A stretch of 64,000 nucleotides of DNA, from contig JAZDKW010000020.1 in NCBI GenBank assembly GCA_043802665.1, forward strand, positions 7,036 through 71,035. Reading direction: 5' to 3'. Shown piece by piece: positions 3,983 through 45,886 of this stretch (its first letter is position 1; each line of letters begins with the position of its first letter). The DNA is from Patescibacteria group bacterium. GTDB lineage: Bacteria; Patescibacteriota; Kazan-3B-28; UBA10110. The position numbers and the translations under genes are program-made. The notes under the pieces were generated by a model. It did not search any database and was not told the DNA's origin. It worked only from the letters and a program-made list of their open reading frames with translations.

Positions 3983-5365
3983 TTAAACACTGGTTTCTTC
4001 AATGGCCACCAGGGACTCGGCGGTTAATTCTCGTTCGGTTTCCAGGGTGCGGAATGTCATTGTTTCAGGTTTAAAGTAAAGTTCCACCTGACCGGTAGGA
4101 CCATTACGATGTTTGGCAATAATAATATCGGCAATATTAGGATGTTCGCTATCTTTATTATAATAATCGTCCCGATAAATAAGCATTACTACATCCGCAT
4201 CCTGTTCAATGGCGCCACTTTCGCGCAAGTCTGATAACTGCGGGATCTTTCGGGGACGCTTTTCCACCTCCCGTGATAATTGCGACACGGCGATGACCGG
4301 GATATTAAGTTCCCGAGCTAAACCTTTAAGCCCTCTTGAGATTTCAGATATTTCCTGAACTCGATTATCCGAATTCCTCCGTGACTCCATCAACTGCAAA
4401 TAATCCACAATCAACAAGTCTAATTTTTTCTCCGCCTGCAAACGGCGAGCTTTAGTACGCATCTCCATTACATTTGATCCCGGGGAATCATCAATATAAA
4501 TAGGGAACTCAGCTAATTTGCTCATCGCTTCACTTAAGCGAGCAAAATCCTCTTCTCGCAAATTACCTGTTCGCAACCGCCAGGAATCGATTCCGGATTC
4601 CGCACTAATCAACCGATCAACCACTTGATCTTTAGACATCTCTAAATGAAACATCCCAACCGCATAACCTTCGGTGGCGGCATTGAGAGCAAAACTCAAA
4701 GCCAAACTAGTCTTGCCAATACTGGGACGGGCAGCCACCACAATTAAATCGGATTTCTGAAAACCTGATAGTATGTTGTCTAATAGTTTAAATCCAGTAG
4801 GGACGCCGCGAGTCTGGCCGCGATGCTCGTGCAGTTTATCAATTCTTTCAAAGGCTTCATCCAACACATCTCGTACCGAAACAAATCCGCCATGCAGATA
4901 CTTTCTGGCCACAGCAAACAATCGCTTTTCGGCTTCATCCAAAAGGATATCCAACTCCTGGTTTTCTTGCCGGCCAAAAGCAGCAATATCAGCCCCAGCC
5001 GCAATCAAATTACGCAAAGTAGCTTTAGCAGAAACAATTTCAGCATATCTCGCCACACTCGCACTACTTGGCAAACTACCAGCCAGACTGGTTAAATAGC
5101 TCGCTCCGCCAACACTATCTAATTTCTTGCGATCACGCAGAACATCTGTCACTGTTACCACATCAATCGGCCTCATCTTTTCGTACAAAGCCAACATCGC
5201 CGAAAAAATAATGCCATGCCGATCCTCGTAAAAATCTTCTGGCTTAACAATATCAGCCACACGGATAACGGCATCTTTATCCAACAACAATGACCCCAGC
5301 AATGATTTTTCTGCGTCTACATTTTGGGGAGGCATTACATTTTCAGCTGATTGCGAAGCGCTCAT
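3983..5365 (-). CDS. dnaB: replicative DNA helicase DnaB
   Basis: 460 aa; Walker A GKTSLALSF in RecA-like C-terminal domain; DnaB N-terminal domain. Confidence 0.9.
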   Translation of the reverse strand: MSASQSAENVMPPQNVDAEKSLLGSLLLDKDAVIRVADIVKPEDFYEDRHGIIFSAMLALYEKMRPIDVVTVTDVLRDRKKLDSVGGASYLTSLAGSLPSSASVARYAEIVSAKATLRNLIAAGADIAAFGRQENQELDILLDEAEKRLFAVARKYLHGGFVSVRDVLDEAFERIDKLHEHRGQTRGVPTGFKLLDNILSGFQKSDLIVVAARPSIGKTSLALSFALNAATEGYAVGMFHLEMSKDQVVDRLISAESGIDSWRLRTGNLREEDFARLSEAMSKLAEFPIYIDDSPGSNVMEMRTKARRLQAEKKLDLLIVDYLQLMESRRNSDNRVQEISEISRGLKGLARELNIPVIAVSQLSREVEKRPRKIPQLSDLRESGAIEQDADVVMLIYRDDYYNKDSEHPNIADIIIAKHRNGPTGQVELYFKPETMTFRTLETERELTAESLVAIEETSV

Positions 5366-7021: not shown

Positions 7022-7903
7022 TTATTTATAATACACCCGGTCTAAAATGCGCAGATCAACATACTGGCGAGGATGAGCCCCATCGCGGAGGATTTTAGCC
7101 AGATTATTTAATTGGGTATCCGGACTTTTAGTAGCATCAAAGATAATCTTCCAGCCTTCATTGGTTATAACTTCAACTTCAAAGGTGGTTTCTGGTACTA
7201 CTATCTGTCGCACATTCAAATTGGTTTTGCGAGGAAGATTCGCCGCCACAAAGTTCACAAACTCAATAAAATCGGTGGTTAGAATCTGTTGCTTCAAGCT
7301 CACCGGCACATTCTTTAGATCCTCCACTACGAGTAGCGGGCTATCAGGAGGAGCAATATCATAAACCACACCCGCCCGATTCACCAAAAACTGTTCGTTG
7401 TTGGTACGCCAGATTAAGGACGTTTCATGTTCTTCTATAATAATTTGCAACTGGTGTTGCCAAATATTTTTGTGAAAATCTATTGTCTTGATTTGGGAGA
7501 TAGTCATTGCTTGCCGCATTGCCTTGACCTCATTGAACAACAAAGCATTCACTCCTTTAAACTCTTGCTTAAAAATTGTATCTACAAGGGTCTGGTTGTC
7601 CACTAAACGATTGCCTTGAATATCTAACTGATCTAAGACAAAGAAGTGCGATCCAAACACCCAATAAAAAAGCACGATTAAACCTGCCCCCACCAATGTT
7701 CGGAGCAGTGGTGCGGCTACTGTGCTTAAAGATTTATGCTTAAATTTAGGCGTCCAGGCTAATTTTTTTAGCCGATGTTTGCGGGGTTGGACAAGAGAAG
7801 GTTTAGTCGTATAAAAGCTTACGCAGGGACGAATAGTAGACGCCAGTGCCGGCGGCAATTTTTTTTTGAACACTTTTTCGAAAGCAAATCCCCTCTTTAC
7901 CAT
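7022..7903 (-). CDS. ftsQ: cell division protein FtsQ/DivIB (POTRA domain)
   Basis: 293 aa; basic N-terminus, one TM helix, then POTRA-like beta/alpha region; located directly downstream of murC. Confidence 0.7.
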   Translation of the reverse strand: MVKRGFAFEKVFKKKLPPALASTIRPCVSFYTTKPSLVQPRKHRLKKLAWTPKFKHKSLSTVAAPLLRTLVGAGLIVLFYWVFGSHFFVLDQLDIQGNRLVDNQTLVDTIFKQEFKGVNALLFNEVKAMRQAMTISQIKTIDFHKNIWQHQLQIIIEEHETSLIWRTNNEQFLVNRAGVVYDIAPPDSPLLVVEDLKNVPVSLKQQILTTDFIEFVNFVAANLPRKTNLNVRQIVVPETTFEVEVITNEGWKIIFDATKSPDTQLNNLAKILRDGAHPRQYVDLRILDRVYYK

Positions 7904-10160: not shown

Positions 10161-10433
10161 TTAATTTCTATTCCTCAGTAACAAAATACTAAGTACCAAG
10201 GCAATAGTAAAGAACACTGCCCCCCAGAAACAAGGAGTGACAAAAAGATTAATCAGGGCAGGGCAACTAACCTCAAAGCACTGGGCACCTGTACACGGAT
10301 AACAAATCTGCTGGCTCCGCCAATTTATCACTTCCAAAACAAAGTTCCCCCAAGCAAATAAAGTGCCCAGAAGCAATACCCAAAACTGTGCCCAAATAAT
10401 TTTATTCACCCCGTTAGAGATAGAAAACTTCAT
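10161..10433 (-). CDS. small Cys-rich integral membrane protein
   Basis: 90 aa, three hydrophobic segments, CxxC-like pairs (CYPCTGAQC, SCP). Confidence 0.4.
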   Translation of the reverse strand: MKFSISNGVNKIIWAQFWVLLLGTLFAWGNFVLEVINWRSQQICYPCTGAQCFEVSCPALINLFVTPCFWGAVFFTIALVLSILLLRNRN

Positions 10434-10533
10434 CGTTTTCGTAAGTTAATAATAATTTCTAAATAAAGCTTGATTTAATAATTGATATATAAGTTGGTGA
10501 AAAATAGTTGCTATTGGTTATCTCTAACGGGGT

Positions 10534-10710
10534 TCATTTCCGCCAGTCTTTAATAATTAAATGACGCCCGGCGGCCCGGACAACCAGCTTTTGACGCTCC
10601 TGCCATCCCAGCTTACGCACCACTTCTGCAGGCAAAGTCAGCCCCAAGCTATATTTAGCAATGCGAGTGAGCTTTCTAATATCTTTTTTACCGCTTCTAT
10701 TTCTCGCCAT
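10534..10710 (-). CDS. SpoVT/AbrB-type (MazE-like) swapped-hairpin DNA-binding protein, 58 aa
   Basis: Manual minus-strand translation: MARNRSGKKDIRKLTRIAKYSLGLTLPAEVVRKLGWQERQKLVVRAAGRHLIIKDWRK. This fits the AbrB/MazE fold pattern (LPAEVVRKLGW..G..L). It is below the 60-aa ORF-track cutoff. Confidence 0.5.
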   Translation of the reverse strand: MARNRSGKKDIRKLTRIAKYSLGLTLPAEVVRKLGWQERQKLVVRAAGRHLIIKDWRK

Positions 10711-31666: not shown

Positions 31667-31783
31667 CCCGTTAGAAGCAGGAAACCTTTAGGTTCCCGAC
31701 GTTTAATAATAAGATATCTGATAATAAATGGGTTATTGAGTAATTCATAGAATTTGATACTGAATAGAGCACTTCTAACGGGA
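31667..31783. repeat. stop-to-start intergenic element 1: left end CCCGTTAGAAGCAGG, right end CACTTCTAACGGGA
   Basis: Exactly fills the gap between the ctpA stop (31788) and the rplI ATG (31666); terminal inverted repeat of 11-12 bp. Confidence 0.7.
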
Positions 31784-31787
31784 TGGA

Positions 31788-33002
31788 TCATTTTATTAGT
31801 TTCTTTAGTTCTTCTATAGCCTTATCTAACTGCACATCTGTTGCCTCGTCCTGACCCTCTTCTATTAATATATCAGGCTTAATCCCCCCCTGGCTAATGG
31901 ATTTACCGGAAGGCGTATACCAATGTGCTACTGTAATCCGCAGAGCGGAACCATCTGGCATCTCTTCAATCTCTTGGACACTTCCCTTGCCATAGGTGTT
32001 GGTCCCCACGATTGTCGCTCTCCCATTGTCCTTAAGAGCACCTGCCAAGATCTCTGCCGCCGAGGCACTACCATCATTCACCAAGACAACCACAGGGATA
32101 TCTGATAATTTCCCGGAACCATCAGCATAAAAAGGTGTCACTCGGCCATCTTTGAATCGCTCTTCCACAATCATGCCATCAAACATAAATTCATTGACGA
32201 CCTTAACCCCAACATCCAAAAACCCGCCGGGATTATTGCGCAAATCTAATACTATCCCGGTAACGCCGCCCTTGACTATAGTGCTAACAACATTGCGAAA
32301 CAATTTTTCTGTATCACTGCTAAATTTAGTGATTTCAATAACGGCCAACTGGTCCTCAAAAGAAACTAAAGTAACACTGGGTATTTTAATTAGACCACGA
32401 GTCACCACAAACTCTAACGGATTGGCTTCCCCTTCCCGGCTGATAATCAAAGTAACTTGGCTACCGCGAGCCCCCTGAATGAGCTGTACCGCCCCATCTA
32501 AACCCAAACCGATTGTGATGCGGCCATCAATGGCCATAATCGTATCGCGCGGCTTAATGCCGGCCTTCTGCGCTGGCGAACCTTCCATAGGAGTAATGAC
32601 TACTAACTGGCCATCAATATCATCCATTTCGACACCGATACCTTCATAAATGCCGTTTAAATTAGTAAAGAACTCTTTGCTTTCGGCTGGTGTGCTAAAC
32701 GAAGTGTAATGATCCCCTAAAGAATCTACCGCCCCCTTAATACTGCCATATAACAAATTGAGCTGATCTATATCACCGTAATATTTTTCTTGCAATAAAC
32801 TAATCACGTCCTCATACAAGGAAAAACTGGGGGTGACTTCACGATAGTTGCTGATCTCTTGTTGCCAAGCCGCTAAAAGATTCTGGTTGGTAATGCGATG
32901 ATAATATCCCCGAGTTACTCCCAACCAATAGCCCATCAACAAGGACACTAAAATGCTTAGGATACAAAGCGCGTTACGAGTTTTGTCATCAATTTTAAAC
33001 AT
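31788..33002 (-). CDS. ctpA: C-terminal processing peptidase (S41) with PDZ domain
   Basis: 404 aa; PDZ segment plus the S41 catalytic region. Confidence 0.8.
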   Translation of the reverse strand: MFKIDDKTRNALCILSILVSLLMGYWLGVTRGYYHRITNQNLLAAWQQEISNYREVTPSFSLYEDVISLLQEKYYGDIDQLNLLYGSIKGAVDSLGDHYTSFSTPAESKEFFTNLNGIYEGIGVEMDDIDGQLVVITPMEGSPAQKAGIKPRDTIMAIDGRITIGLGLDGAVQLIQGARGSQVTLIISREGEANPLEFVVTRGLIKIPSVTLVSFEDQLAVIEITKFSSDTEKLFRNVVSTIVKGGVTGIVLDLRNNPGGFLDVGVKVVNEFMFDGMIVEERFKDGRVTPFYADGSGKLSDIPVVVLVNDGSASAAEILAGALKDNGRATIVGTNTYGKGSVQEIEEMPDGSALRITVAHWYTPSGKSISQGGIKPDILIEEGQDEATDVQLDKAIEELKKLIK

Positions 33003-33006
33003 AACC

Positions 33007-34167
33007 TTAACTTATCAGATAAGCCAGGGGATTACGCAATACCCCTTCATACCACACCTCAAAATGTAGGTGCGGCCCGGTGGTGAGCCAGCCTGCACCA
33101 GGAGTGCCGGGAGTACCGCCGCTATATCCAATTACTTGGCCTAAACTCACTCTGGCTCCATTGCCTACTGCGAACCCGGATAAATGCATATAAACTGTAG
33201 CTAAGCCATTGTCATGATTAATCACTAAGTAACTCAGGCCTTTGGCCCCACCGTTCACTATTTTAGTTACCGTTCCACTAGCAGGTGCAGTTATCGGCGT
33301 ACCTTGGGGACAAGCAATATCCATGCCCGTATGTTGCAGGCCAAATCGTTTAAAGTAATCAGGATCGCGAAAAGTAGCAGTGATAGTTCGATACGGAATC
33401 GGCCACATTAAGGTCAAAGGCCCCACCGGATGAGTGGAAGGGGTCTGCCGTATTAAAGTGGCAACGGCATCCTCGACGGCCACTGCCTCTGCTTTGGATT
33501 CGGCTAATTTTCCCTGATATTCCGTTTCGCTTAATTTAAGATCCTTCATAATCTTATTTTTGGCGTCAACTTGAATACCCAAACTTTGTTCTTCTATTGT
33601 TCTTTGTTGACGGATATCTAACAAACGTTCGTTTTTATCTTCCAGAAAAGCTTTTTTGGAAGATAGTGATTCTTGGATTCCCTTCAAAGCCTGCAGATTA
33701 GTAGTGATTTTGTTTTGGATATAGTTAATATATTCCATCCGAATCCAGAAATCGGCTATGCTATTAGAACCCAAAACAATCTCGATTAAATTATTTTGGC
33801 TATATATATAAGAAGCGCGGATGGCCTGTTTAAGATCTATGCGCCGAGCCAAAGCCTGTTCCTCCAAATCTACTAAATCGTGATTGATAGTATTTTTTTC
33901 TATACCGATAGTAACAACCTCAGCATCAATAGCTTCTAAAGCCAATTGAGCCGTAGTGATTTGTTGGTCAAGCAACTTAACCTGATTGTCCAAAGTAAGC
34001 GTTTGTTTGCGAATATTGGATAATGTTTCTTCCTGCTGAGTAATTTTTTTTTGGATATCTTTTAGCTCTTGCTGTTTATCGGACAATAAATCGGCCCGGG
34101 CTGGGCTGTTTGTCAATATTAATCCAGCTATTAATGCTATGTTGAGTCCAAAAAGTATTTTTTTCAT
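33007..34167 (-). CDS. envC: M23/LytM peptidase with N-terminal coiled coil (EnvC-like FtsEX partner)
   Basis: 386 aa; signal peptide, long coiled coil, C-terminal M23 motifs (HTGMDIA ... GPHLHFEV). Confidence 0.8.
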   Translation of the reverse strand: MKKILFGLNIALIAGLILTNSPARADLLSDKQQELKDIQKKITQQEETLSNIRKQTLTLDNQVKLLDQQITTAQLALEAIDAEVVTIGIEKNTINHDLVDLEEQALARRIDLKQAIRASYIYSQNNLIEIVLGSNSIADFWIRMEYINYIQNKITTNLQALKGIQESLSSKKAFLEDKNERLLDIRQQRTIEEQSLGIQVDAKNKIMKDLKLSETEYQGKLAESKAEAVAVEDAVATLIRQTPSTHPVGPLTLMWPIPYRTITATFRDPDYFKRFGLQHTGMDIACPQGTPITAPASGTVTKIVNGGAKGLSYLVINHDNGLATVYMHLSGFAVGNGARVSLGQVIGYSGGTPGTPGAGWLTTGPHLHFEVWYEGVLRNPLAYLIS

Positions 34168-34287
34168 CCCGTTAGAAGCAGGAAACGCCTTCGTTTCCGT
34201 CGTTTAAAGATAAAGTGGTTAATTGGTTAGTCATGGCACAAGGCATAGCTTTTATTAAGTTGGAATCCTTTGCTGCTTCTAACGGGA
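34168..34287. repeat. stop-to-start intergenic element 2: CCCGTTAGAAGCAGG ... GCTTCTAACGGGA
   Basis: Fills the gap between the ftsX stop (34289) and the envC ATG (34167). Confidence 0.7.
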
Positions 34288-34288
34288 C

Positions 34289-35206
34289 TCATATTCTTAG
34301 ATATCGCCGGGTAGATAAGTAACTGCTGATGGCTCCTACTGATACTCCGAAAAACAACTGAACAACAAAAAGCTTCACTGCGAAAACATAATCAAAAATA
34401 TTGTGAGCACCGACCAAGGTCTGTAATGACCAGTACTGTTCGCCCAATAATAATATTATTCCTTGATACACACCCAGGGTAAGCAAAAAAGCTAACACCG
34501 CTCCCAATAATCCGTAAATTACTCCTTCTAAGATGAGCGGCCACCGAATATACCAATCGGTAGCTCCAACCAGCTTCATAATTTCTATCTCCTCTTTATG
34601 GGTAAAGATAGTGATACGGATAGTATTAAAAATAATCAGCAGGGCGATAATAATCAAAATCAAACTTAGTGCTAAATTGCCCCAAGCCAAAAACCAATTG
34701 AACTTGCGCAATTTATCTACAACGACCTGATTATTTTCTAAACTGGTTTTGGTGACAATGTGATTGGTATCTTGATCCTTCACCCGCTGCACCACCGTTT
34801 CCAAGAGGTTCGCATCGGTTACTTCAATCTGTAAACTCACAGGGAAAAAGCTACTGTCATCCCCGACAATATCTAAGAGAGCCTGATCGTGCTGACTACT
34901 GGTAGTATATCTCTCCAAAGCTTGTTCGCGTGAAATAAATTGGACATCTTTAACTCCTTTTAGATATTCAATCTTGTCCTGGAAAGCTAAAACATCGCTA
35001 TCCGGAACATAATCTTCAAAGAATACAGCCACATTAATCTGTTCGTTAAGGGCCTGAATAGCCTTATTAACTCCCAAATTAACCGTCAGGAAAATTCCCA
35101 CTAAAAGCAAAACCTGCATCATAATAAAGATCGCCACGAGACTTAACCAACCGTTGCGCCAAAAACCATGCCAAGCCGTTTTTATAATGCGTAAAAATAT
35201 TTGCAT
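34289..35206 (-). CDS. ftsX: cell division ABC permease-like protein FtsX
   Basis: 305 aa; 4 TM helices with large periplasmic loop; downstream of ftsE. Confidence 0.85.
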   Translation of the reverse strand: MQIFLRIIKTAWHGFWRNGWLSLVAIFIMMQVLLLVGIFLTVNLGVNKAIQALNEQINVAVFFEDYVPDSDVLAFQDKIEYLKGVKDVQFISREQALERYTTSSQHDQALLDIVGDDSSFFPVSLQIEVTDANLLETVVQRVKDQDTNHIVTKTSLENNQVVVDKLRKFNWFLAWGNLALSLILIIIALLIIFNTIRITIFTHKEEIEIMKLVGATDWYIRWPLILEGVIYGLLGAVLAFLLTLGVYQGIILLLGEQYWSLQTLVGAHNIFDYVFAVKLFVVQLFFGVSVGAISSYLSTRRYLRI

Positions 35207-35217
35207 TGATTGGGTAA

Positions 35218-35898
35218 TTAATTTAACCGATATTTTCCGTGCCTTTTGTCGCTAACCAACTTTCCATCCTTTAAAGAAACTACTCGTTTTCCAATTGAAT
35301 CAACAATCTCCCGATTGTGAGTAGCCAAAATTACTGTTGTGCCTAAGCGATTGATTTTTATCAACAATTGCGCGATCTCCCACGCATTGTGAGGGTCCAG
35401 ATTCCCAGTCGGTTCATCTGCAATTAATAACCGAGGATGGAGCACTAAGGCACGGGCGATCGCTACTCGCTGAGCCTCTCCTCCCGATAGTTCATGCGGA
35501 AAATTATCGGCCTTGTTTTTAAGACCTACTAAATCTAATATCTTCATTGTCTCGGTCCGAATAGCCTCGTCCGAAGCCCCCGTAACCTCTAAAGCAAAAG
35601 CTACATTTTCATATACTGTTTTATTGGGCAATAACTTAAAATCTTGATAAACTACGCCAATCTGTCTCCGATAATAAGGAATGTATGCCTTGCTCAACAA
35701 GTGAATGTCCTTTCCGTCAATAGTGATTTGACCAAAAGTGGGCTGTTCCTCACAAGTCAGCAAACGGATGATAGTCGATTTGCCCGCTCCCGATGGCCCC
35801 ACCAAGCTGATGAACTCTCGCGGCAGAATGGTAAAACTAACCCCGTCTAAGGCTCGGACCGTCCCATAATGTTTGGTTACCCGATTTAATTGAATCAT
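35218..35898 (-). CDS. ftsE: cell division ATP-binding protein FtsE
   Basis: 226 aa; Walker A GPSGAGKST, signature [15 protein letters not shown], Walker [13 protein letters not shown]. Confidence 0.9.
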   Translation of the reverse strand: MIQLNRVTKHYGTVRALDGVSFTILPREFISLVGPSGAGKSTIIRLLTCEEQPTFGQITIDGKDIHLLSKAYIPYYRRQIGVVYQDFKLLPNKTVYENVAFALEVTGASDEAIRTETMKILDLVGLKNKADNFPHELSGGEAQRVAIARALVLHPRLLIADEPTGNLDPHNAWEIAQLLIKINRLGTTVILATHNREIVDSIGKRVVSLKDGKLVSDKRHGKYRLN

Positions 35899-35946
35899 AA
35901 TTTATTATCCTGAGCGTAGTCGAAGGACTTCATTTTTATTATATGC

Positions 35947-37045
35947 TTACTTCAACCTATCTTTAAGATTTAAGGTAACACTATTAATTATTTCGTCTAA
36001 ATTACCCTCTTCCAACACCTCTTTAACCCGGGTGGTAACAAAACCACTACGATGATCTTTAATTTGATGGTATGGGTGCAGTACATAAGAACGAATTTGT
36101 TGGCCAAAATCGCCTGACTCCCCTGCGCCTTTCAGGCCCCGCTCTTCATTCTCGCGTTCTTGTTCCTTCAACAAATAGACACGGTGCTTTAGGACACGCA
36201 TAGCGATTTCCTTGTTTTGCGCTTGTGATCGTTCGCCCTGTGCTGATGCGGATAATTTAGTGGGTAAATGAGTAATGCGCACAGCCGAATCAGTGGTATT
36301 GACTGACTGACCACCGTGTCCGGAAGAACGGAAAACATCAATGCGCAGATCTTTAGCTGGCAGTTCGGCTTCGACGATCTCCCCTAAATCCGGGATAACT
36401 TCTATCAAAGCAAATGAGGTCTGCCGCAAATTCTGGGCGTTAAATGGCGACAACCGAATCAGCCGATGGACACCTTTCTCCGCCTTTAGCAGGCCGTAAG
36501 CTAAATCACCTTCTATTTTGATGGTAGCGCTTTTAATACCCGCTTCCCCACCGGCGGTTTTTTCAATTAACGTAGTGCGCCACCCTCTCCGAGCCGCATA
36601 TTTTGTATACATTCTGAGGAGCATCTCTGTCCAATCGGCGGCATCTACTCCTCCTGTCCCGCTATGTAAAAAGAGGTACGCATCGCGCCGGTCGTAGGGA
36701 CCGTTCAGTACCGTCTGCCGCTCCAATTCATCTAATCTCTTTTGTACTTTATCCAGCAGAACCACTGCCGCTTCATCAGTACTGGTAAAATCCTCATCTT
36801 TCATTACAGCGGATAGACCCCCCAGTTGGCTGTCTAAATCACTGATTTCATCAATCAGTTTTTTATTCCGCTCAAATTCAATAGTTAGCTCTTTGGCTTT
36901 CGCTGGGTCTTGCCAAAAAGCTGGTTCGCTCATTTGTTCAGCAATCGATTTGTTTTTTATAGATAGACCCGCCGGGTCAAAGATACCTCCGCAATCTATC
37001 CAACTGATCCACTGCCTCTTCCGCTGACAATTTTAATTCCTTCAT
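35947..37045 (-). CDS. prfB: peptide chain release factor 2, with programmed +1 frameshift
   Basis: ORF1 (ATG 37045) encodes MKELKLSAEEAVDQLDRLRRYL and ends at UGA 36979-36977. Its context GGAGG UAU CUU UGA C is the canonical RF2 frameshift site. The +1 frame continues into the annotated 328-aa ORF, which carries the GGQ motif (SGHGGQS). Confidence 0.85.
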
Positions 37046-37161
37046 CCCGTTAGAAGCAGGGAGCCCAGGGCTCCCGACTGGTTAACAATATAGTATCTGA
37101 TAATAAATTAATAATTAAATAATCCATAGGTTTTATACGTAATGATGTGTTTCTAACGGGA
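37046..37161. repeat. stop-to-start intergenic element 3: CCCGTTAGAAGCAGGG ... GTTTCTAACGGGA
   Basis: Fills the gap between the infC stop (37166) and the prfB ATG (37045). Confidence 0.7.
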
Positions 37162-37165
37162 TAAA

Positions 37166-37678
37166 TTATTTTGGATTTAATACTGTAAAAAGTTGTCGAT
37201 TTTGGATTGCAGGTGTTTTTTCTAAACTATAAGTTTGTTGTAACATCCCCAAAAATTTGTCTAGGACCCGTTGACCTAATTCTGGGTGAGTGATTTGACG
37301 CCCTTTGAAACGAACCACCACCTTTACCTTATGCTGTTTGGCGAGAAACTGATCGACTTTTTTAGCTTTAACTATCAGATCATGATCGTCAATCCCGAGG
37401 CTAAGCCGCATTTCTTTTTCTTCACGGTTTTTTTGTCGCTTACGTTGTTGTGCTTGAGATTTCTCCTGTTCGTATTGATATTTACCGTAGTCAATAATTT
37501 TACAAACTGGAGGCCGTTGGTTAGCTACAACTTCGACAAGATCCAAGCCAACTTCTTTAGCTTGTTGTAGTGCTTGAGAAGTGGCAATTATTCCTACCCG
37601 TTGTCCATTCTCGTCGATTAATAGGACTTGAGGTAGGCGGATTTGTTCATTGATGCGCAAACGTGATTGTGAGGTCAT
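37166..37678 (-). CDS. infC: translation initiation factor IF-3
   Basis: 170 aa; IF3 N- and C-domains (VRLIDENGQ..., KVKVVVRFKGRQITHPELG). Confidence 0.9.
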   Translation of the reverse strand: MTSQSRLRINEQIRLPQVLLIDENGQRVGIIATSQALQQAKEVGLDLVEVVANQRPPVCKIIDYGKYQYEQEKSQAQQRKRQKNREEKEMRLSLGIDDHDLIVKAKKVDQFLAKQHKVKVVVRFKGRQITHPELGQRVLDKFLGMLQQTYSLEKTPAIQNRQLFTVLNPK

Positions 37679-37730
37679 ATGAAGTATATATAGACACTAT
37701 CATAAGAGGTAGCTAGCGTCAACAAACTTG

Positions 37731-38531
37731 CTAGCTGGTCTGGTTAGGTGATTTAGAGGAAGTTAGGACAGTAATGGTTTTACCGATGGCATGGATCTTG
37801 ACAGGAGTATGAGCCACCGTATCATTGCCAGATATTATAGGCATATTTAAACTGCTCTCAATTTCTATATGATTTGCCCGAAATATACTTTTTTCAGGGC
37901 TCTTTTCGTTACAGGTATTAAGATAGATTTTCATCTTCTTGCCAAATTCATCTTGAAAATAAATGGCCATAGTATGTAATTGGCATTTGATGACAAATTC
38001 GTTGTCTATTTTTATTGTACAAGCAACATGGTGTTCTTCCTTGGGGATTGCTCTAGTATTGGCCCCGATGAAGTTGCGCAATAGGCTTTTCTTTTCGAAG
38101 AGATTAGCTAACAGGGTGCGTTTTGGGCTAATCAAAAGTGACCCCGCAAAATATCTTTCCCCAATTTTACCCAGACGTAGTTGTTTCTTTTTGTGTTGAG
38201 CTAATATTTTAATCCCAGTTTTCCAATCCCGAGCGCCCAGTGTATTAGCCAGCAGGTTGGCTTTGCTAATAGGAATAATAGCTAAAGGCAAATTGCGGTA
38301 ATCTGCCAAAGCATCAATCACAGCATTAACAGTACCATTGCCTCCCACTGCCACCACTGCCTTTAAACTAGTTTTGGCATGTTGTTTAATTAAATCTTCT
38401 ACATTAGCTAAATCGTCGATGATAACTATTTTATATTTAATATCCAACTTATTGAGTAAGCTGGTAAAAGGTCGTTCAATTCGACGGTAGCGCTGATTTC
38501 CTGCTTTGGGGTTGACTAGAAGAAGGTACAT
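37731..38531 (-). CDS. diacylglycerol/lipid kinase catalytic-domain protein (YegS/BmrU family)
   Basis: 266 aa; VVAVGGNGTVNAV nucleotide-binding motif of DAGK_cat. Confidence 0.65.
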   Translation of the reverse strand: MYLLLVNPKAGNQRYRRIERPFTSLLNKLDIKYKIVIIDDLANVEDLIKQHAKTSLKAVVAVGGNGTVNAVIDALADYRNLPLAIIPISKANLLANTLGARDWKTGIKILAQHKKKQLRLGKIGERYFAGSLLISPKRTLLANLFEKKSLLRNFIGANTRAIPKEEHHVACTIKIDNEFVIKCQLHTMAIYFQDEFGKKMKIYLNTCNEKSPEKSIFRANHIEIESSLNMPIISGNDTVAHTPVKIHAIGKTITVLTSSKSPNQTS

Positions 38532-38532
38532 T

Positions 38533-38943
38533 TTAATCTAGTTTTTCCTCTTCTACTTCGAAAGTTGGTTTAGCTGTTGGCGTGTCTTCGGATACATTTT
38601 GCATCTGACTGCTACCTTTTAGAATGCCCCCGGGTTCAATTGATAAAGCTTGGCTAGTAACATCACCCATAACTCTTCCAGTTTCAAGAATTTGTAATTT
38701 TGCTTGAGCTTTGATGTCTCCATCAACCTCGCCACTCACATAAACATTTTTGGCATCAATTTCTGCTTTGACTTTACCATGTTCTCCCACAATCAAATCT
38801 CCGGAAATTTCAATTTCGCCAGTAAACTGTCCATTAATTTGTACATCACCTTCTCCTTTTAACTCGCCTTCTACAACAACCTCTTTGCCGATCAAAGTAT
38901 CGAGATGTTCGGAGTCAGCAAAATCTTTGCGATCTTTTGCCAT
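38533..38943 (-). CDS. bactofilin
   Basis: 136 aa; repetitive beta-helical (V/I)xGx(V/I) pattern typical of bactofilin/DUF583. Confidence 0.75.
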   Translation of the reverse strand: MAKDRKDFADSEHLDTLIGKEVVVEGELKGEGDVQINGQFTGEIEISGDLIVGEHGKVKAEIDAKNVYVSGEVDGDIKAQAKLQILETGRVMGDVTSQALSIEPGGILKGSSQMQNVSEDTPTAKPTFEVEEEKLD

Positions 38944-39114
38944 TAATTGATTTTAAATACCACAAATATTATATGTGTTAATCCAAAGTTCGTAAAGATA
39001 AACTATTTTTTAAATAATGATCAAAAATGGCTCTGAGATTGACATATTTGACCATAATCTGCATAGGGGGTATAATCTAACTTCTGCTCAAATCTCTTAA
39101 TCTTTAGATTAAAT

Positions 39115-40686
39115 ATGAAAGCAAGATACATTATTATACCAGTAGCGGTAGTGGGAGCAATTGTGCTGACTATTTGGTTATTGGGCCGAGCATTAAATAA
39201 AACTCCCCAGTATGAATTATATGAAGTGCGTAAAGGGTCAGTAGCTAAGACTGTTTCTGTTTCAGGGTCAGTCATCAGTGACCAAAAATTTGAGTTAGGT
39301 TTTTTGTCCCCCGGTATTGTTCAAACAGTTAATGCAAAAGTTGGAGATATTGTAAAACAAGGAGATTTATTAGTAGCATTGGATACTAGTATTTTGCGCG
39401 AGCAAGCTAATCAAGCTAGGGCCAGTATAGCCGCGTCTAGTGCTATGCTGTCCAAATCTCGCAATGCTTTGCGCCCGCAAGATGTTACGGTATTAAATCG
39501 ATCTTTGGATAGTGCCAGAGTTGCTTTGAATACTGCCCAAAAAAATTTGCAGGATGCATATCGCACCAGGGATTTAGATATTAATAATTCTGTTGCTAGT
39601 TTAGCCACTGCTGAAACTGCTTACCAGAATGCCATTAATACTTACAACGCTCGCCAAGCTGTTATTGACCAATCGACAGTTAGTGCACAAGTGGCGCTAA
39701 ATAATGCTAGCAATGCTTTAAGTATCGCCCAATCTTCTTATAGTCAAGTTCTAAATTTGTATAATTATGGGCAAGCGACGATGTTTGATCTGCAACAAGC
39801 CCAGTTGGCATTAAATACTGCTAATAGTGGTTATCTGACTGCCCGATCTACTTATGACAATGTCATACAACAGGCTAATTTAGAGAAAGTATCAGCTAGC
39901 GCTAGTGTTAATAGTGCGCGAGCCCAGTTAGATAGTGCTCGGGCAATGTATAATTTTTCTCTTTCGGGTATTGATACAAAGATAAACAGCGCTCAAAATG
40001 CTTTGTCGGCTGCACAAGCCACTTACAATTTGGCGACTGCTCAATATCAGCAATCATTAGCGCCAGCTCATTTTGCAGATGTCGCATCAGCCTCTGCCCA
40101 AGTAGCTTCAGCTTCAGCTTCGTTGCGGGCCGTGCAAGCCCAAATTGATAAGGCTTATATCAAAGCACCAATTGACGGTATCATTACGGCAGTTAATGCT
40201 ACCGAACACGAAATTTCGCCAATGAGTGCGCCAGCCATAGTGTTGGAAACAGTCGGTGCTTATCAAATCGAGGCCTATATCTCCGAAGTGGATATCGAAA
40301 AGATTACCCCAGGAGCAGAAGCGCGCATTACTTTAGATGCGTTGCTTAATGTCGAGGCCCATGGCAATGTTGCGCAAATCGATCCAGCCGCCACTATTGT
40401 TTTGGGAGTAGTGAATTATAAAATTAATGTAGCAATTACTGATCAAATCGACCAATTAAAATCAGCCATGACGGCAGATTTAGAAATTTTGACTGAACAA
40501 CGCGATGATGTTTTATTTGTTCCGCGCAAGGCAGTTACTCGCTCAGAGGGCAAGTATTCAATTAAAGTTTTAGTTAATGATAAAGTTGAGGAACAAGAAG
40601 TACAAGTAGGTTTAGTGGGCGACAATGAATTAGAGATTTTAACTGGGTTAATCGAAGGCGATCGTATAGTGTTAAAAGAACTATAA
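39115..40686 (+). CDS. periplasmic adaptor subunit (HlyD/MacA family) of tripartite efflux system
   Basis: 523 aa; N-terminal TM, biotinyl-lipoyl-like half motifs flanking a very long Ala/Gln-rich coiled coil, C-terminal beta-barrel. Confidence 0.75.
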   Translation: MKARYIIIPVAVVGAIVLTIWLLGRALNKTPQYELYEVRKGSVAKTVSVSGSVISDQKFELGFLSPGIVQTVNAKVGDIVKQGDLLVALDTSILREQANQARASIAASSAMLSKSRNALRPQDVTVLNRSLDSARVALNTAQKNLQDAYRTRDLDINNSVASLATAETAYQNAINTYNARQAVIDQSTVSAQVALNNASNALSIAQSSYSQVLNLYNYGQATMFDLQQAQLALNTANSGYLTARSTYDNVIQQANLEKVSASASVNSARAQLDSARAMYNFSLSGIDTKINSAQNALSAAQATYNLATAQYQQSLAPAHFADVASASAQVASASASLRAVQAQIDKAYIKAPIDGIITAVNATEHEISPMSAPAIVLETVGAYQIEAYISEVDIEKITPGAEARITLDALLNVEAHGNVAQIDPAATIVLGVVNYKINVAITDQIDQLKSAMTADLEILTEQRDDVLFVPRKAVTRSEGKYSIKVLVNDKVEEQEVQVGLVGDNELEILTGLIEGDRIVLKEL

Positions 40687-45592: not shown

Positions 45593-45886
45593 TGGTGCCG
45601 CGGGACGGGATCGGACCGCCGACGCATGCCTCTTCCGAAGCATTTGGACTATCTCATTCTCCATTTAGCAATGGAGATTGGGCGCTAATGTGGGATTATC
45701 GTTGGGACTCACCCACTAGTCTCTACACCTTCCTCGCTATCATATGCCCGGCGAGGCTTGGCTCGGGATTGTCAAACACATGGCGTGTGTTTGGTTTTCC
45801 CCGAATTCACCCAATTTTTCAATCCTAGTTACCTAGGAAAGCCCCGAAGATTCCAGGGCATCGCTCTACCACTGAGCTACCGCGGC
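45593..45886 (-). tRNA. tRNA-Phe(GAA), interrupted between U33 and G34 by a group I intron
   Basis: The 5' exon is 45855-45886, GCCGCGGUAGCUCAGUGGUAGAGCGAUGCCCU. The 3' exon is 45593-45635, GAAGAGGCAUGCGUCGGCGGUCCGAUCCCGUCCCGCGGCACCA. Joined, they give a canonical 75-nt tRNA with anticodon loop CUGAAGA. The T-loop UCCGAUC is atypical. Confidence 0.6.
45636..45854 (-). ncRNA. group I intron (~219 nt) in the tRNA-Phe anticodon loop
   Basis: The 5' exon ends in U and pairs with the intron GGGG (P1). The intron UCUUC pairs with the 3' exon GAAGA (P10). The P7 halves GUAGAGACUAGUG (R-like) and GAGAUAGUCC (S-like, consensus AAGAUAUAGUCC) are present, and the intron ends in G. There is no internal ORF. 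Confidence 0.6.

Follow-up and report, generated by a model that had tools for sequence, protein, structure and literature searches.

The 64,000-nucleotide stretch of DNA analyzed here (the window) comprises positions 7,036 to 71,035 of contig JAZDKW010000020.1, which belongs to the assembly GCA_043802665.1 of a Patescibacteria group bacterium (Kazan-3B-28; UBA10110), and the subject of this report is a set of four short elements, E1 to E4, that lie between closely spaced genes within it. An earlier note on this DNA had described three inverted-repeat elements that fill stop-to-start gaps, and these were found to be real: the end motif CCCGTTAGAAG, with at most one mismatch, occurs at six sites in the window that form three inward-facing pairs, while shuffled sequences gave a mean of 0.94 sites and none of 100 reached six. 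A fourth copy, E4, had been overlooked; it is seen once two mismatches are allowed, and both of its arms are altered in a compensatory manner (AGAGAT / ATCTCT). The elements are 115-122 nt long, have a terminal stem of 12-14 bp, adjoin an ATG or a GTG, and lie, together with their genes, on the minus strand. E1 (31667..31782, 116 nt) extends from the stop codon of an S41 protease gene (ctpA-like) to the ATG of rplI and has exact 11-nt inverted ends; E2 (34168..34286, 119 nt) extends from the ftsX stop to the ATG of an M23/EnvC-like peptidase gene; and E3 (37046..37160, 115 nt) extends from the infC stop to the prfB ATG. E4 (10410..10531, 122 nt) has the ends CCCGTTAGAGAT / ATCTCTAACGGG and adjoins a GTG. 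The location in housekeeping operons, as first proposed, does not hold for this copy, which has the TGA of a 58-aa MazE-like open reading frame (ORF) upstream and the GTG of an 82-aa ORF, encoding an unknown membrane protein, downstream.

In E1, E2 and E3, the right end ...CTTCTAACGGG stands directly before the ATG of L9 (rplI), of the M23/EnvC-like peptidase and of RF2 (prfB ORF0, with a frameshift at 36982-36976), respectively. The upstream stops of the S41 protease, FtsX and IF-3 lie 5, 2 and 5 nt before CCCG, or 3, 0 and 3 nt when two extra paired flank bases are included, which is close to the offset of 1-4 nt reported earlier. The terminal repeats described for these three elements are present, except that the left arm of E3 carries one mismatch (AGAAA opposite GCTTC), giving an A-C mismatch in its terminal stem. 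A subterminal hairpin is found in each element, at 31680..31696 in E1 (GGGAACC taaa GGTTTCC, with the 3' arm ending 13 nt from the element end), at 34181..34198 in E2 (GGAAACG aagg CGTTTCC), at 37059..37075 in E3 (GGGAGCC ctg GGCTCCC) and at 10423..10440 in E4 (GAAAAC gatgaa GTTTTC), all on the minus strand. The three 7-bp hairpins of E1-E3 had been recognized before as fully paired; they exist, but pairing is not complete in E1, where one G-T pair occurs. Folding of the RNA, which the earlier note had suggested, indicated that E1-E3 are far more stable than shuffled sequences (z -4.5 to -5.1).

The flanks of the elements carry, to differing degrees, two copies of a start region. At E2, the left copy (ATGAGT, 34287..34292) contains the ftsX stop codon (TGA, 34291-34289) and the M23 peptidase gene begins with the right copy (ATGAAA, 34162..34167); relatives keep the FtsX C-terminus, ...YLRI*. 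At E4, the TGA of the left copy (ATGAAC, 10532..10537) is the stop of the 58-aa upstream ORF (10536-10534), and the right copy (GTGAAT, 10404..10409) holds the GTG start of the 82-aa ORF, the G of which pairs with the C at the left junction. The left copy at E1 is decayed (ATCCAT, 31783..31788, compared with ATGAAA on the right); the stop TGA lies at 31790-31788, and the empty site in relatives reads AAATGATGAAA. The left flank of E3 (ATTTAT, 37161..37166) matches the rpmI start ATTAAC of a metagenome contig, L001, and not the prfB start ATGAAG. The TGAA repeat is thus perfect at E4, retains three of four bases at E2 and two of four at E1 and E3.

It had also been proposed that the elements compensate for the absence of Shine-Dalgarno (SD) sequences and that two of them share a segment resembling a promoter -10. 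The downstream genes all lack an SD, but the compensating role did not stand, as the genome is SD-poor throughout; an SD-like motif at -16 to -6 precedes only 9 of the 49 long ORFs in the window, against a background of 8%. The shared segment TTATTATCAGAT is real, but a scan of E1-E3 for sigma-70 consensus promoters found no minus-strand site inside any of them. A mobile element carrying an outward promoter was rejected, since this consensus scan gave no sigma-70-like -35/-10 directed toward the downstream gene. The TTATTATCAGAT motif recurs in the element of a related locus (L249) and hence is a subfamily sequence.

A scan of a collection with one genome per species, using the pattern CCCGTTAGAA-N(80-110)-TTCTAACGGG, gave at least 120 loci, and it was found that the same ends bound at least 132 short elements at at least 120 genome loci in more than 100 species-level genomes. 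The analysis below was made on 135 short elements, namely 132 in the listed loci and three in the window, and all counts are among the matches listed. Most of these loci come from Patescibacteria, across many of their classes; labels such as Omnitrophota, Planctomycetota or Deltaproteobacteria are found on some of the records, and the taxon labels of contigs from metagenome-assembled genomes may be wrong. Copies within one genome resemble each other, as seen in L117, L113 and L227 and for E1 and E3 in the window. Viral contigs gave only two identical GC-rich matches, which are unlike this family, and Rfam 15 gave no match at the elements, either at the gathering score or at E <= 10. The P0029 contexts all represented one locus, and no recent transposition was evident by that route. 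Stem-only versions of about 28 nt were observed in L062 (1263-1290), L196 (3657-3684) and L214 (251-278), for example CCCGTTAGATAACTGCGTATCTAACGGG; these are either the smallest derivatives of the family or excision remnants.

An ATG or GTG that opens at least 50 codons was found at position +1 in 84 of the 135 elements, compared with about 0.1% of random positions. The other 51 copies are not on a start codon. The genes occupied are many and unrelated (those for L9, the M23 peptidase, RF2, L35, a SecF-like protein and others), and the orientation relative to the host gene is strongly biased, with 61 sense and 3 antisense copies. Copies in genomes labelled as non-Patescibacteria are mostly not at starts. 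Such is the case in L003, L004, L024, L034, L045, L053, L061, L064 and L070 (labelled Planctomycetota, Deltaproteobacteria, Omnitrophota, Stahlbacteria etc.), which are mostly off start codons and have flanks such as GTAAAC..GTAAAC or TTTAC..GTGAA; these copies may form a separate subfamily with another target or may lie on mis-binned contigs.

The anatomy of the junctions is regular. With the host gene on the right, the flank logo reads ATGRAY | element | RTGRA, and a direct repeat, usually TGAA, is formed by bases -5 to -2 and bases +2 to +5. Variants of the flanks co-vary (ATGGAT..ATGGAT, ATGAGT..ATGAGC, ATGCAT..ATGCAT). A perfect 4-bp repeat was found in 52 of the 84 start-abutting copies, compared with 26 of 84 when the flanks were re-paired at random, and in 29 of the 51 copies off start codons (e.g. 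GTAAAC..GTAAAC, GTTGAC..GTTGAC). Base -1 is always T or C and complementary to the A or G at +1, and base -2 pairs with the T at +2, so that the first two bases of the start codon pair, within the stem, with bases beside the upstream stop. The left copy remains ATG even opposite a right copy with GTG. Among start-abutting copies, the commonest stop of the upstream ORF is the TGA of the left copy (15 copies), followed by a stop at -8 (6) and a TAG inside the left repeat (6). These junctions suggest that an element of the form Y-CCCGTTAGA...TCTAACGGG-R would insert after the A of an ATG, duplicating about 4 bp (3-5), usually TGAA. The last base of the element (A or G) and the duplicated TG would then rebuild the ATG or GTG of the host, the left copy would stay as A-TGA-A and could still stop an overlapping upstream gene, and precise loss of the element would restore a TGATGAAA-type junction.

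Occupied and empty sites were compared in the relatives L247, L249 and L251, which are syntenic (prfB-ftsE-ftsX-M23-ctpA-rplI-glyS), and in L250, a short contig without the ctpA-rplI junction; the FtsX of the window is 100% identical to that of a Patescibacteria entry at NCBI, and its next relatives are 70-73% identical to it. Exact-protein look-ups with the L9 and the FtsX of the window gave no record. The ctpA-rplI junction, which holds E1 in the window, is empty in L247 (AAATAAATGAAAGTT) and in L249 and L251 (AAATGATGAAAATC). At the ftsX-M23 junction (E2 in the window), L247 has no element and carries an ABC-transporter gene between ftsX and M23, while L249 and L250 have an element with a different, E1/E3-like interior and L251 has one with an interior clearly related to E2; the hairpins of these copies are GGAAACG/CGTTTCC in L251 and GAAAAC/GTTTTC in L249. 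The prfB start (E3 in the window) is empty in L247 (TTCATGAAGGAA), and in L249 and L251 it has an element with the flanks ATGAAC..GTGAAA in the opposite orientation. These two copies (L249 4087-4199 and L251 252-363) are among the few antisense ones, and their hairpin is gene-distal, directly 3' of a promoter-like TTGTCA...TAAAAT. That the window elements fit exactly between stop and start is mostly accounted for by their insertion into gaps that were tight beforehand, as the orthologous ctpA-rplI junctions read AAATGATGAAA or TAAATG.

The junction between infC and prfB in the window has a history of its own. Positions 1-2429 of L001 correspond to 37031-39457 of the window, with an identical IF-3 and 99.7% identity through infC and E3, and at the right end of the element L001 continues into rpmI (encoding L35; ATT AAC AAA ATT AAA ACA CAT...), not into prfB. 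The E3 stem mismatch is a perfect pair in L001. Since the left flank of E3 resembles the rpmI start and the stem is fully paired at this position in L001, the infC-E3-prfB junction of the window is best read as the product of recombination between two element copies or as an assembly chimera, and it suggests that element copies also mediate rearrangements. The rpmI gene of L001 (in the region 2414-2600) apparently starts at ATT; it was missed by the gene caller, which called a spurious 49-aa ORF starting inside the element. Similarly, the ORF called downstream of E4 (10161-10433) starts at an ATG inside E4, eight codons 5' of the abutting GTG, which shows how the elements can mislead the annotation of start codons; recurrent annotation errors of both kinds are explained by the elements.

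A second scan, of metagenomes and for the same ends spaced 263-293 bp apart, gave at least 120 loci, from which 123 units were listed. The units are 264-293 bp long, typically about 275 bp, and 75 of the 123 carry a clear ORF for a GIY-YIG nuclease of about 90 aa. This is the single ORF of the full-length unit and overlaps both inverted repeats (12-14 bp). In L111, for example, a 280-bp unit has a 93-aa ORF that begins at the ATG of the flank (ATG AAC CCC GTT AGA AGT = MNPVRS) and ends at a TAA in the right repeat (TTC TAA CGGG GTG). All three full-length proteins tested matched Pfam PF01541 (E = 2e-17 to 6e-14), and the consensus of the protein is m.Y.Y.l.s.kd...YtG.T.dLrkR...Hn.g...sTK.r.P..liYyEac.n..DA..RE.YLKsgmGkRYlkNRLkrfl.ltg. 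The catalytic-type residues are at least 90% conserved among the full-length ORFs, and activity is predicted. The ORF ends as ...CTA ACG GGR TGA, with the RTGA stop on the host start, in 49 of the 75 units; in 13 its stop is a TAA of the repeat that lies 4 nt short of the host start. For 19 of the 75 (MNPVR...) the initiation codon is the start codon duplicated in the flank, and the others use an internal ATG. Where a host start adjoins the ORF, it does so at the 3' end in 40-41 cases and at the 5' end in 1-2, and a perfect 4-bp repeat flanks 31 of 74 full-length copies, compared with 6 of 74 after re-pairing.

The protein family comprises 4295 clusters at 90% identity (E <= 1e-5), with most members being 95 or 86 aa long, and the sources give its members no name more specific than 'GIY-YIG nuclease family protein' or 'putative endonuclease'. 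Among solved structures, the UPF0213 proteins 1ZG2 (BH0048, E = 3e-5) and 1YWL (EF2693) are nearest in sequence, and the full-length proteins also match TIGR01453, a group I intron endonuclease family, weakly. GIY-YIG genes are listed in PMC12455944 with others that other bacteria have received from Patescibacteria by transfer. In L002 (about 4400-4720), a different small GIY-YIG ORF was observed between the two copies of a 23-nt direct repeat, in which the 5' half of a tRNA gene is duplicated (GGGCCCATAGCTCATCCGGTAGA); insertion with duplication of the 5' end of the target may thus occur with other minimal GIY-YIG genes as well.

The short and the long forms are connected by their structure. 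In one full-length subfamily, an internal inverted repeat is present, in which GGAAGCGC, located in the DLRKR codons, pairs with GCGCTTCC near the C-terminus. The 5' arm of this internal stem starts at nt 88-98 in the full-length units and at nt 86-92 in the window elements, and the 3' arm ends 13 nt from the element end in all 24 of the 24 full-length units and in all four window copies. The loop, in contrast, is about 150 nt long in the full-length units and 3-6 nt in the window; removal of a loop of about 150 nt from a unit of about 275 nt and its replacement by a short one gives about 120 nt, as in the window elements (115-122 nt). A DNA profile of the 75 full-length units hit E1-E4 and nothing else in the window; all four hits are in the sense orientation and cover the last 25-29 model positions (E = 5e-4 to 0.06; 0.0011 for the 3' end of E1, 0.00054 for E2 and 0.0016 for E4). 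An 'ACGRRA box' before the hairpin was considered as a family-wide mark and rejected, being present in 5 of 84 copies with 2.6 expected; instead, it characterises a subfamily and reflects the DLRKR codons of a single full-length subfamily. Long and short forms also occur side by side: L227, which comes from a relative of the window organism, has at 766-1180 both a full-length GIY element, made a pseudogene by an in-frame stop, and, 12 nt further on, a miniature copy that is 81-84% identical to E3 and E1, and a second copy (4824-4909) precedes a GatB/YqeY-like gene.

Conservation of the structure was observed in several ways. The full-length unit is predicted to fold with the terminal stem stacked on the internal stem (z = -5.1). 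Positions 10-12 of the stem covary, and position 10 of the 75 full-length copies is G-C in 53, A-T in 10, T-A in 8 and C-G in 4, with none unpaired. Contiguous terminal stems measure 12-14 bp, compared with 9-11 bp when the arms are re-paired between elements, and RNAalifold predicted 14 pairs in 14 window-type copies, including four that show compensatory changes. The sequence of the subterminal hairpins varies from copy to copy, with pairing kept. The terminal stem may matter as RNA, as folded DNA during transposition, or both. Among the 57 miniature copies with an ATG at -6, 19 contain a mini-ORF running to a TAA or RTGA at the host start, which none of 500 shuffles reached (4.4 +/- 1.9); in the window, the mini-ORFs stop after 8-21 codons or are absent, and none of the four copies has one ending at the host start.

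On this evidence, E1-E4 are probably non-autonomous, MITE-like elements (MITE, miniature inverted-repeat transposable element) derived from a mobile gene cassette of very small size. The family to which they belong, the anatomy of its junctions, its gain and loss at orthologous sites and the conservation of its structure are matters of observation. The earlier suggestion of a MITE with a strong target preference was thus upheld by the inverted-repeat ends, the 4-bp duplication, the multiple copies per genome, the empty and occupied orthologous sites and the location of 62% of the copies on start codons. The features of MITEs that were tested were all found, that is, a non-coding sequence of less than 300 bp with terminal inverted repeats, a target duplication, presence/absence polymorphism and a longer coding element with the same ends; by these features the window elements are MITEs, and their coding partner may be a new class of mobile element. 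The miniature form would correspond to the long form without the loop of about 150 nt of the internal stem, leaving the hairpin, the terminal stem and, on the 5' side, a decayed sequence of about 75 nt, and the GIY-YIG protein would mobilise such short copies in trans.

Several points weigh against this interpretation. To our knowledge, GIY-YIG enzymes are not known as transposases in prokaryotes. The window holds no full-length copy or GIY-YIG ORF (tblastn of the window with the protein of a full-length relative gave nothing at E <= 1e-3), and a source of the nuclease in the same genome is therefore putative. When the interiors of the window elements were aligned with full-length units, the gapped scores of E1-E3 were within the shuffled range and only E4 exceeded it. 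The 4-bp repeat is decayed at E1 and E3, where two of four bases match, and the element at the prfB start of the relatives is oppositely oriented. The E2 site is occupied, with its structure intact, in lineages with only about 72% FtsX identity, and this persistence could mean that the host has co-opted the element, which would then not be purely selfish. As intact ends were a requirement in both collection scans, conservation of the outer 9-10 nt is partly by construction. Finally, the preference for starts exceeds what target choice predicts: of the RTGRA sites in the genome loci, 278 coincide with the first start codon of a long ORF, 985 fall outside long ORFs and 5466 within them, and about 84 of the 91 copies flanked by RTGRA are on starts, i.e. 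about 92%, compared with about 22% predicted by the choice of RTGRA together with the loss of intragenic insertions. Perhaps a copy expresses the nuclease and multiplies only where a host initiation site feeds it.

The persistence at E2 also bears on the view that the elements are primarily cis-acting RNA devices of the host, which would place stop beside start or direct processing in SD-poor operons and for which mobility would be incidental or past. This view accounts for the maintenance of stem and hairpin by compensatory changes, for a structure that is intact at the ftsX-M23 junction even where FtsX has diverged by about 28%, for the orientation bias of 61 to 3, for the enrichment of mini-ORFs that end at the host start and for the high stability of the folds. 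It leaves unexplained that target duplications also occur at 29 of the 51 non-start copies, that orthologous sites are empty in relatives with the genes there intact, that the same ends enclose a nuclease gene and that unrelated genes in many phyla are occupied, and it is further disfavored by the lack of an Rfam match even at E <= 10 and by the fact that most window genes lack an SD and manage without an element. As an account of the origin of the elements it is regarded as unlikely; the evidence in its favor is compatible with a secondary co-option.

Equally improbable in our estimation is that the elements are ordinary MITEs moved by the DDE-type transposase of an unrecognised insertion sequence (IS), with the GIY-YIG ORF as a passenger or an unrelated occupant. 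Inverted-repeat ends with a short target duplication are a hallmark of DDE transposition, but in 1.74 Mb of loci the left and right ends are spaced only about 28-130 bp and 250-300 bp apart, apart from three end pairs at 0.9-1.7 kb, which enclose host genes and no transposase. No DDE or similar transposase was found between the same ends in these 1.74 Mb, the collection scans covering end pairs up to 600 bp apart, and the long form has room only for the GIY ORF, which overlaps both repeats. Removal or skipping of the insert, either by intron-like excision between the TGAA repeats or by a ribosome bypass like that of phage T4 gene 60, with take-off at the left ATG-AAY and landing at the right RTG-AAN, is very improbable. 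Matched short repeats do flank a stable stem-loop, and most copies keep the left ATG, but this ATG is missing from E1 and E3, and the second codon frequently differs between the two sides (AAT vs AAA), which does not suit re-pairing of a peptidyl-tRNA. In addition, no ribozyme or intron family matched, non-start copies carry the same repeats, and a long-form protein ending at the host start offers a simpler route to coupling.

Within the interpretation as mobile cassettes and their miniatures, a role of the elements as a structured translational-coupling device is plausible from their sequences. With a nuclease ORF that ends on or near the host start, translation of the host gene could be coupled to that ORF. 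In the window elements, a ribosome terminating 2-5 nt upstream would melt the outer stem, and its opening would make the A/G-U of the start codon, positioned opposite the stop in the helix, available for re-initiation. A bolder proposal, which we put forward only tentatively, is that these sequences represent a new class of prokaryotic transposable element, in which a GIY-YIG protein of about 90 aa is the sole protein and acts on a folded end-to-end stem, start sites are targeted and rebuilt, and the stem couples host translation to upstream ribosomes, with the window copies being partly domesticated coupling modules.

In the full-text literature searched, no description was found of GIY-YIG cassettes bounded by inverted repeats or of MITEs that target start codons. 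Correia/NEMIS elements of Neisseria, ERIC of enterobacteria and RUP of pneumococci are MITEs that are cotranscribed within operons, and the window elements resemble them in size (about 100-130 bp), terminal inverted repeats, short duplication, high copy number, intergenic location and stem-loops in the mRNA. They differ in that their coding relative is a 275-bp cassette with only a GIY-YIG gene and not an IS with a DDE transposase, that start codons are targeted and rebuilt, and that the same ends are found across many phyla. The cassettes share the GIY-YIG catalytic domain, and the habit of a small selfish gene between host genes, with homing endonuclease genes such as I-TevI and the seg/mob genes of phage T4. 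The cassette protein, however, has no DNA-binding domain (about 90 aa vs about 245 aa), and the cassettes have inverted-repeat ends, a 4-bp duplication and non-coding miniatures, and lie at hundreds of different genes, not at one cognate allele. A homing endonuclease gene was rejected, given the many unrelated genes, each with a short duplicated target. The UPF0213/YhbQ-type proteins (COG2827), which provide the closest solved structures, are of the same size, have a single domain and have no assigned function; in the cassettes, unlike in these, the N- and C-terminal codons are the inverted repeats (MNPVR..., ...FLSLTG), and the genes sit on host starts with a duplicated target.

The PATEs of the IS200/IS605 group and the REP/RAYT systems are also tiny, with DNA hairpins that are perhaps recognised as folded single strands and with a small non-DDE nuclease as partner, but they have no element-spanning terminal inverted repeats and no target duplication, and their enzymes are of the HUH Y1 type. 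An IS200/IS605-type PATE was rejected on account of the 4-bp duplication and of the stem of 12-14 bp that joins the two ends here. The split ribosome-binding sites of T4 genes 38 and 25 and ATGA overlaps offer a parallel for the coupling, as a hairpin brings upstream signals beside the start, and likewise RTGA is found in 49 of the 75 cassettes; the T4 arrangements are fixed in single genes, whereas here the arrangement is carried by a mobile element and its function is putative. The attC sites of integrons, which lie downstream of cassette ORFs, have the consensus 5'-RYYYAAC ... GTTRRRY-3'. They were rejected as a candidate because the order in the present elements is GTTAGAA ... TTCTAAC on either strand; with palindromic ends this order is found on both strands, and GTT/AAC lies at the outer, not the inner, side of the stem.

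If the GIY-YIG protein does mobilise the elements, the known bacterial transposable elements would gain a further nuclease family and, at about 275 bp, their smallest autonomous cassette. It would also provide the first functional lead for a large family of GIY-YIG proteins (the 4295 clusters mentioned above), whose UPF0213 relatives are likewise without an assigned function. The targeting and rebuilding of start codons, together with the stop/start overlaps, indicates how a parasite can sit in the tight operons of reduced genomes without killing genes.

The window has some further features. A canonical prfB +1 frameshift site, GGAGGTATCTTTGAC, lies at 36976-36990 on the minus strand and includes an internal SD-like GGAGG, though SD sequences are otherwise rare here. 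The GC skew changes sign at about 39000-40000, with genes on the minus strand to the left and on the plus strand to the right, and the first genes to the right of this switch are an HlyD/MacAB-type efflux set, not dnaA. A group I intron (Rfam RF00028, 66 bits, 45626-45864) splits a tRNA-like gene at 45593-45885 on the minus strand, just upstream of tRNA-Gly(GCC) and tRNA-Leu(UAA). ARAGORN made no call for this gene, the 5' part of which is GCCGCGGTAGCTCAGTGGTAGAGCGATGCCCTGGAA and the 3' part of which ends with ...CCCGCGGCACCA.

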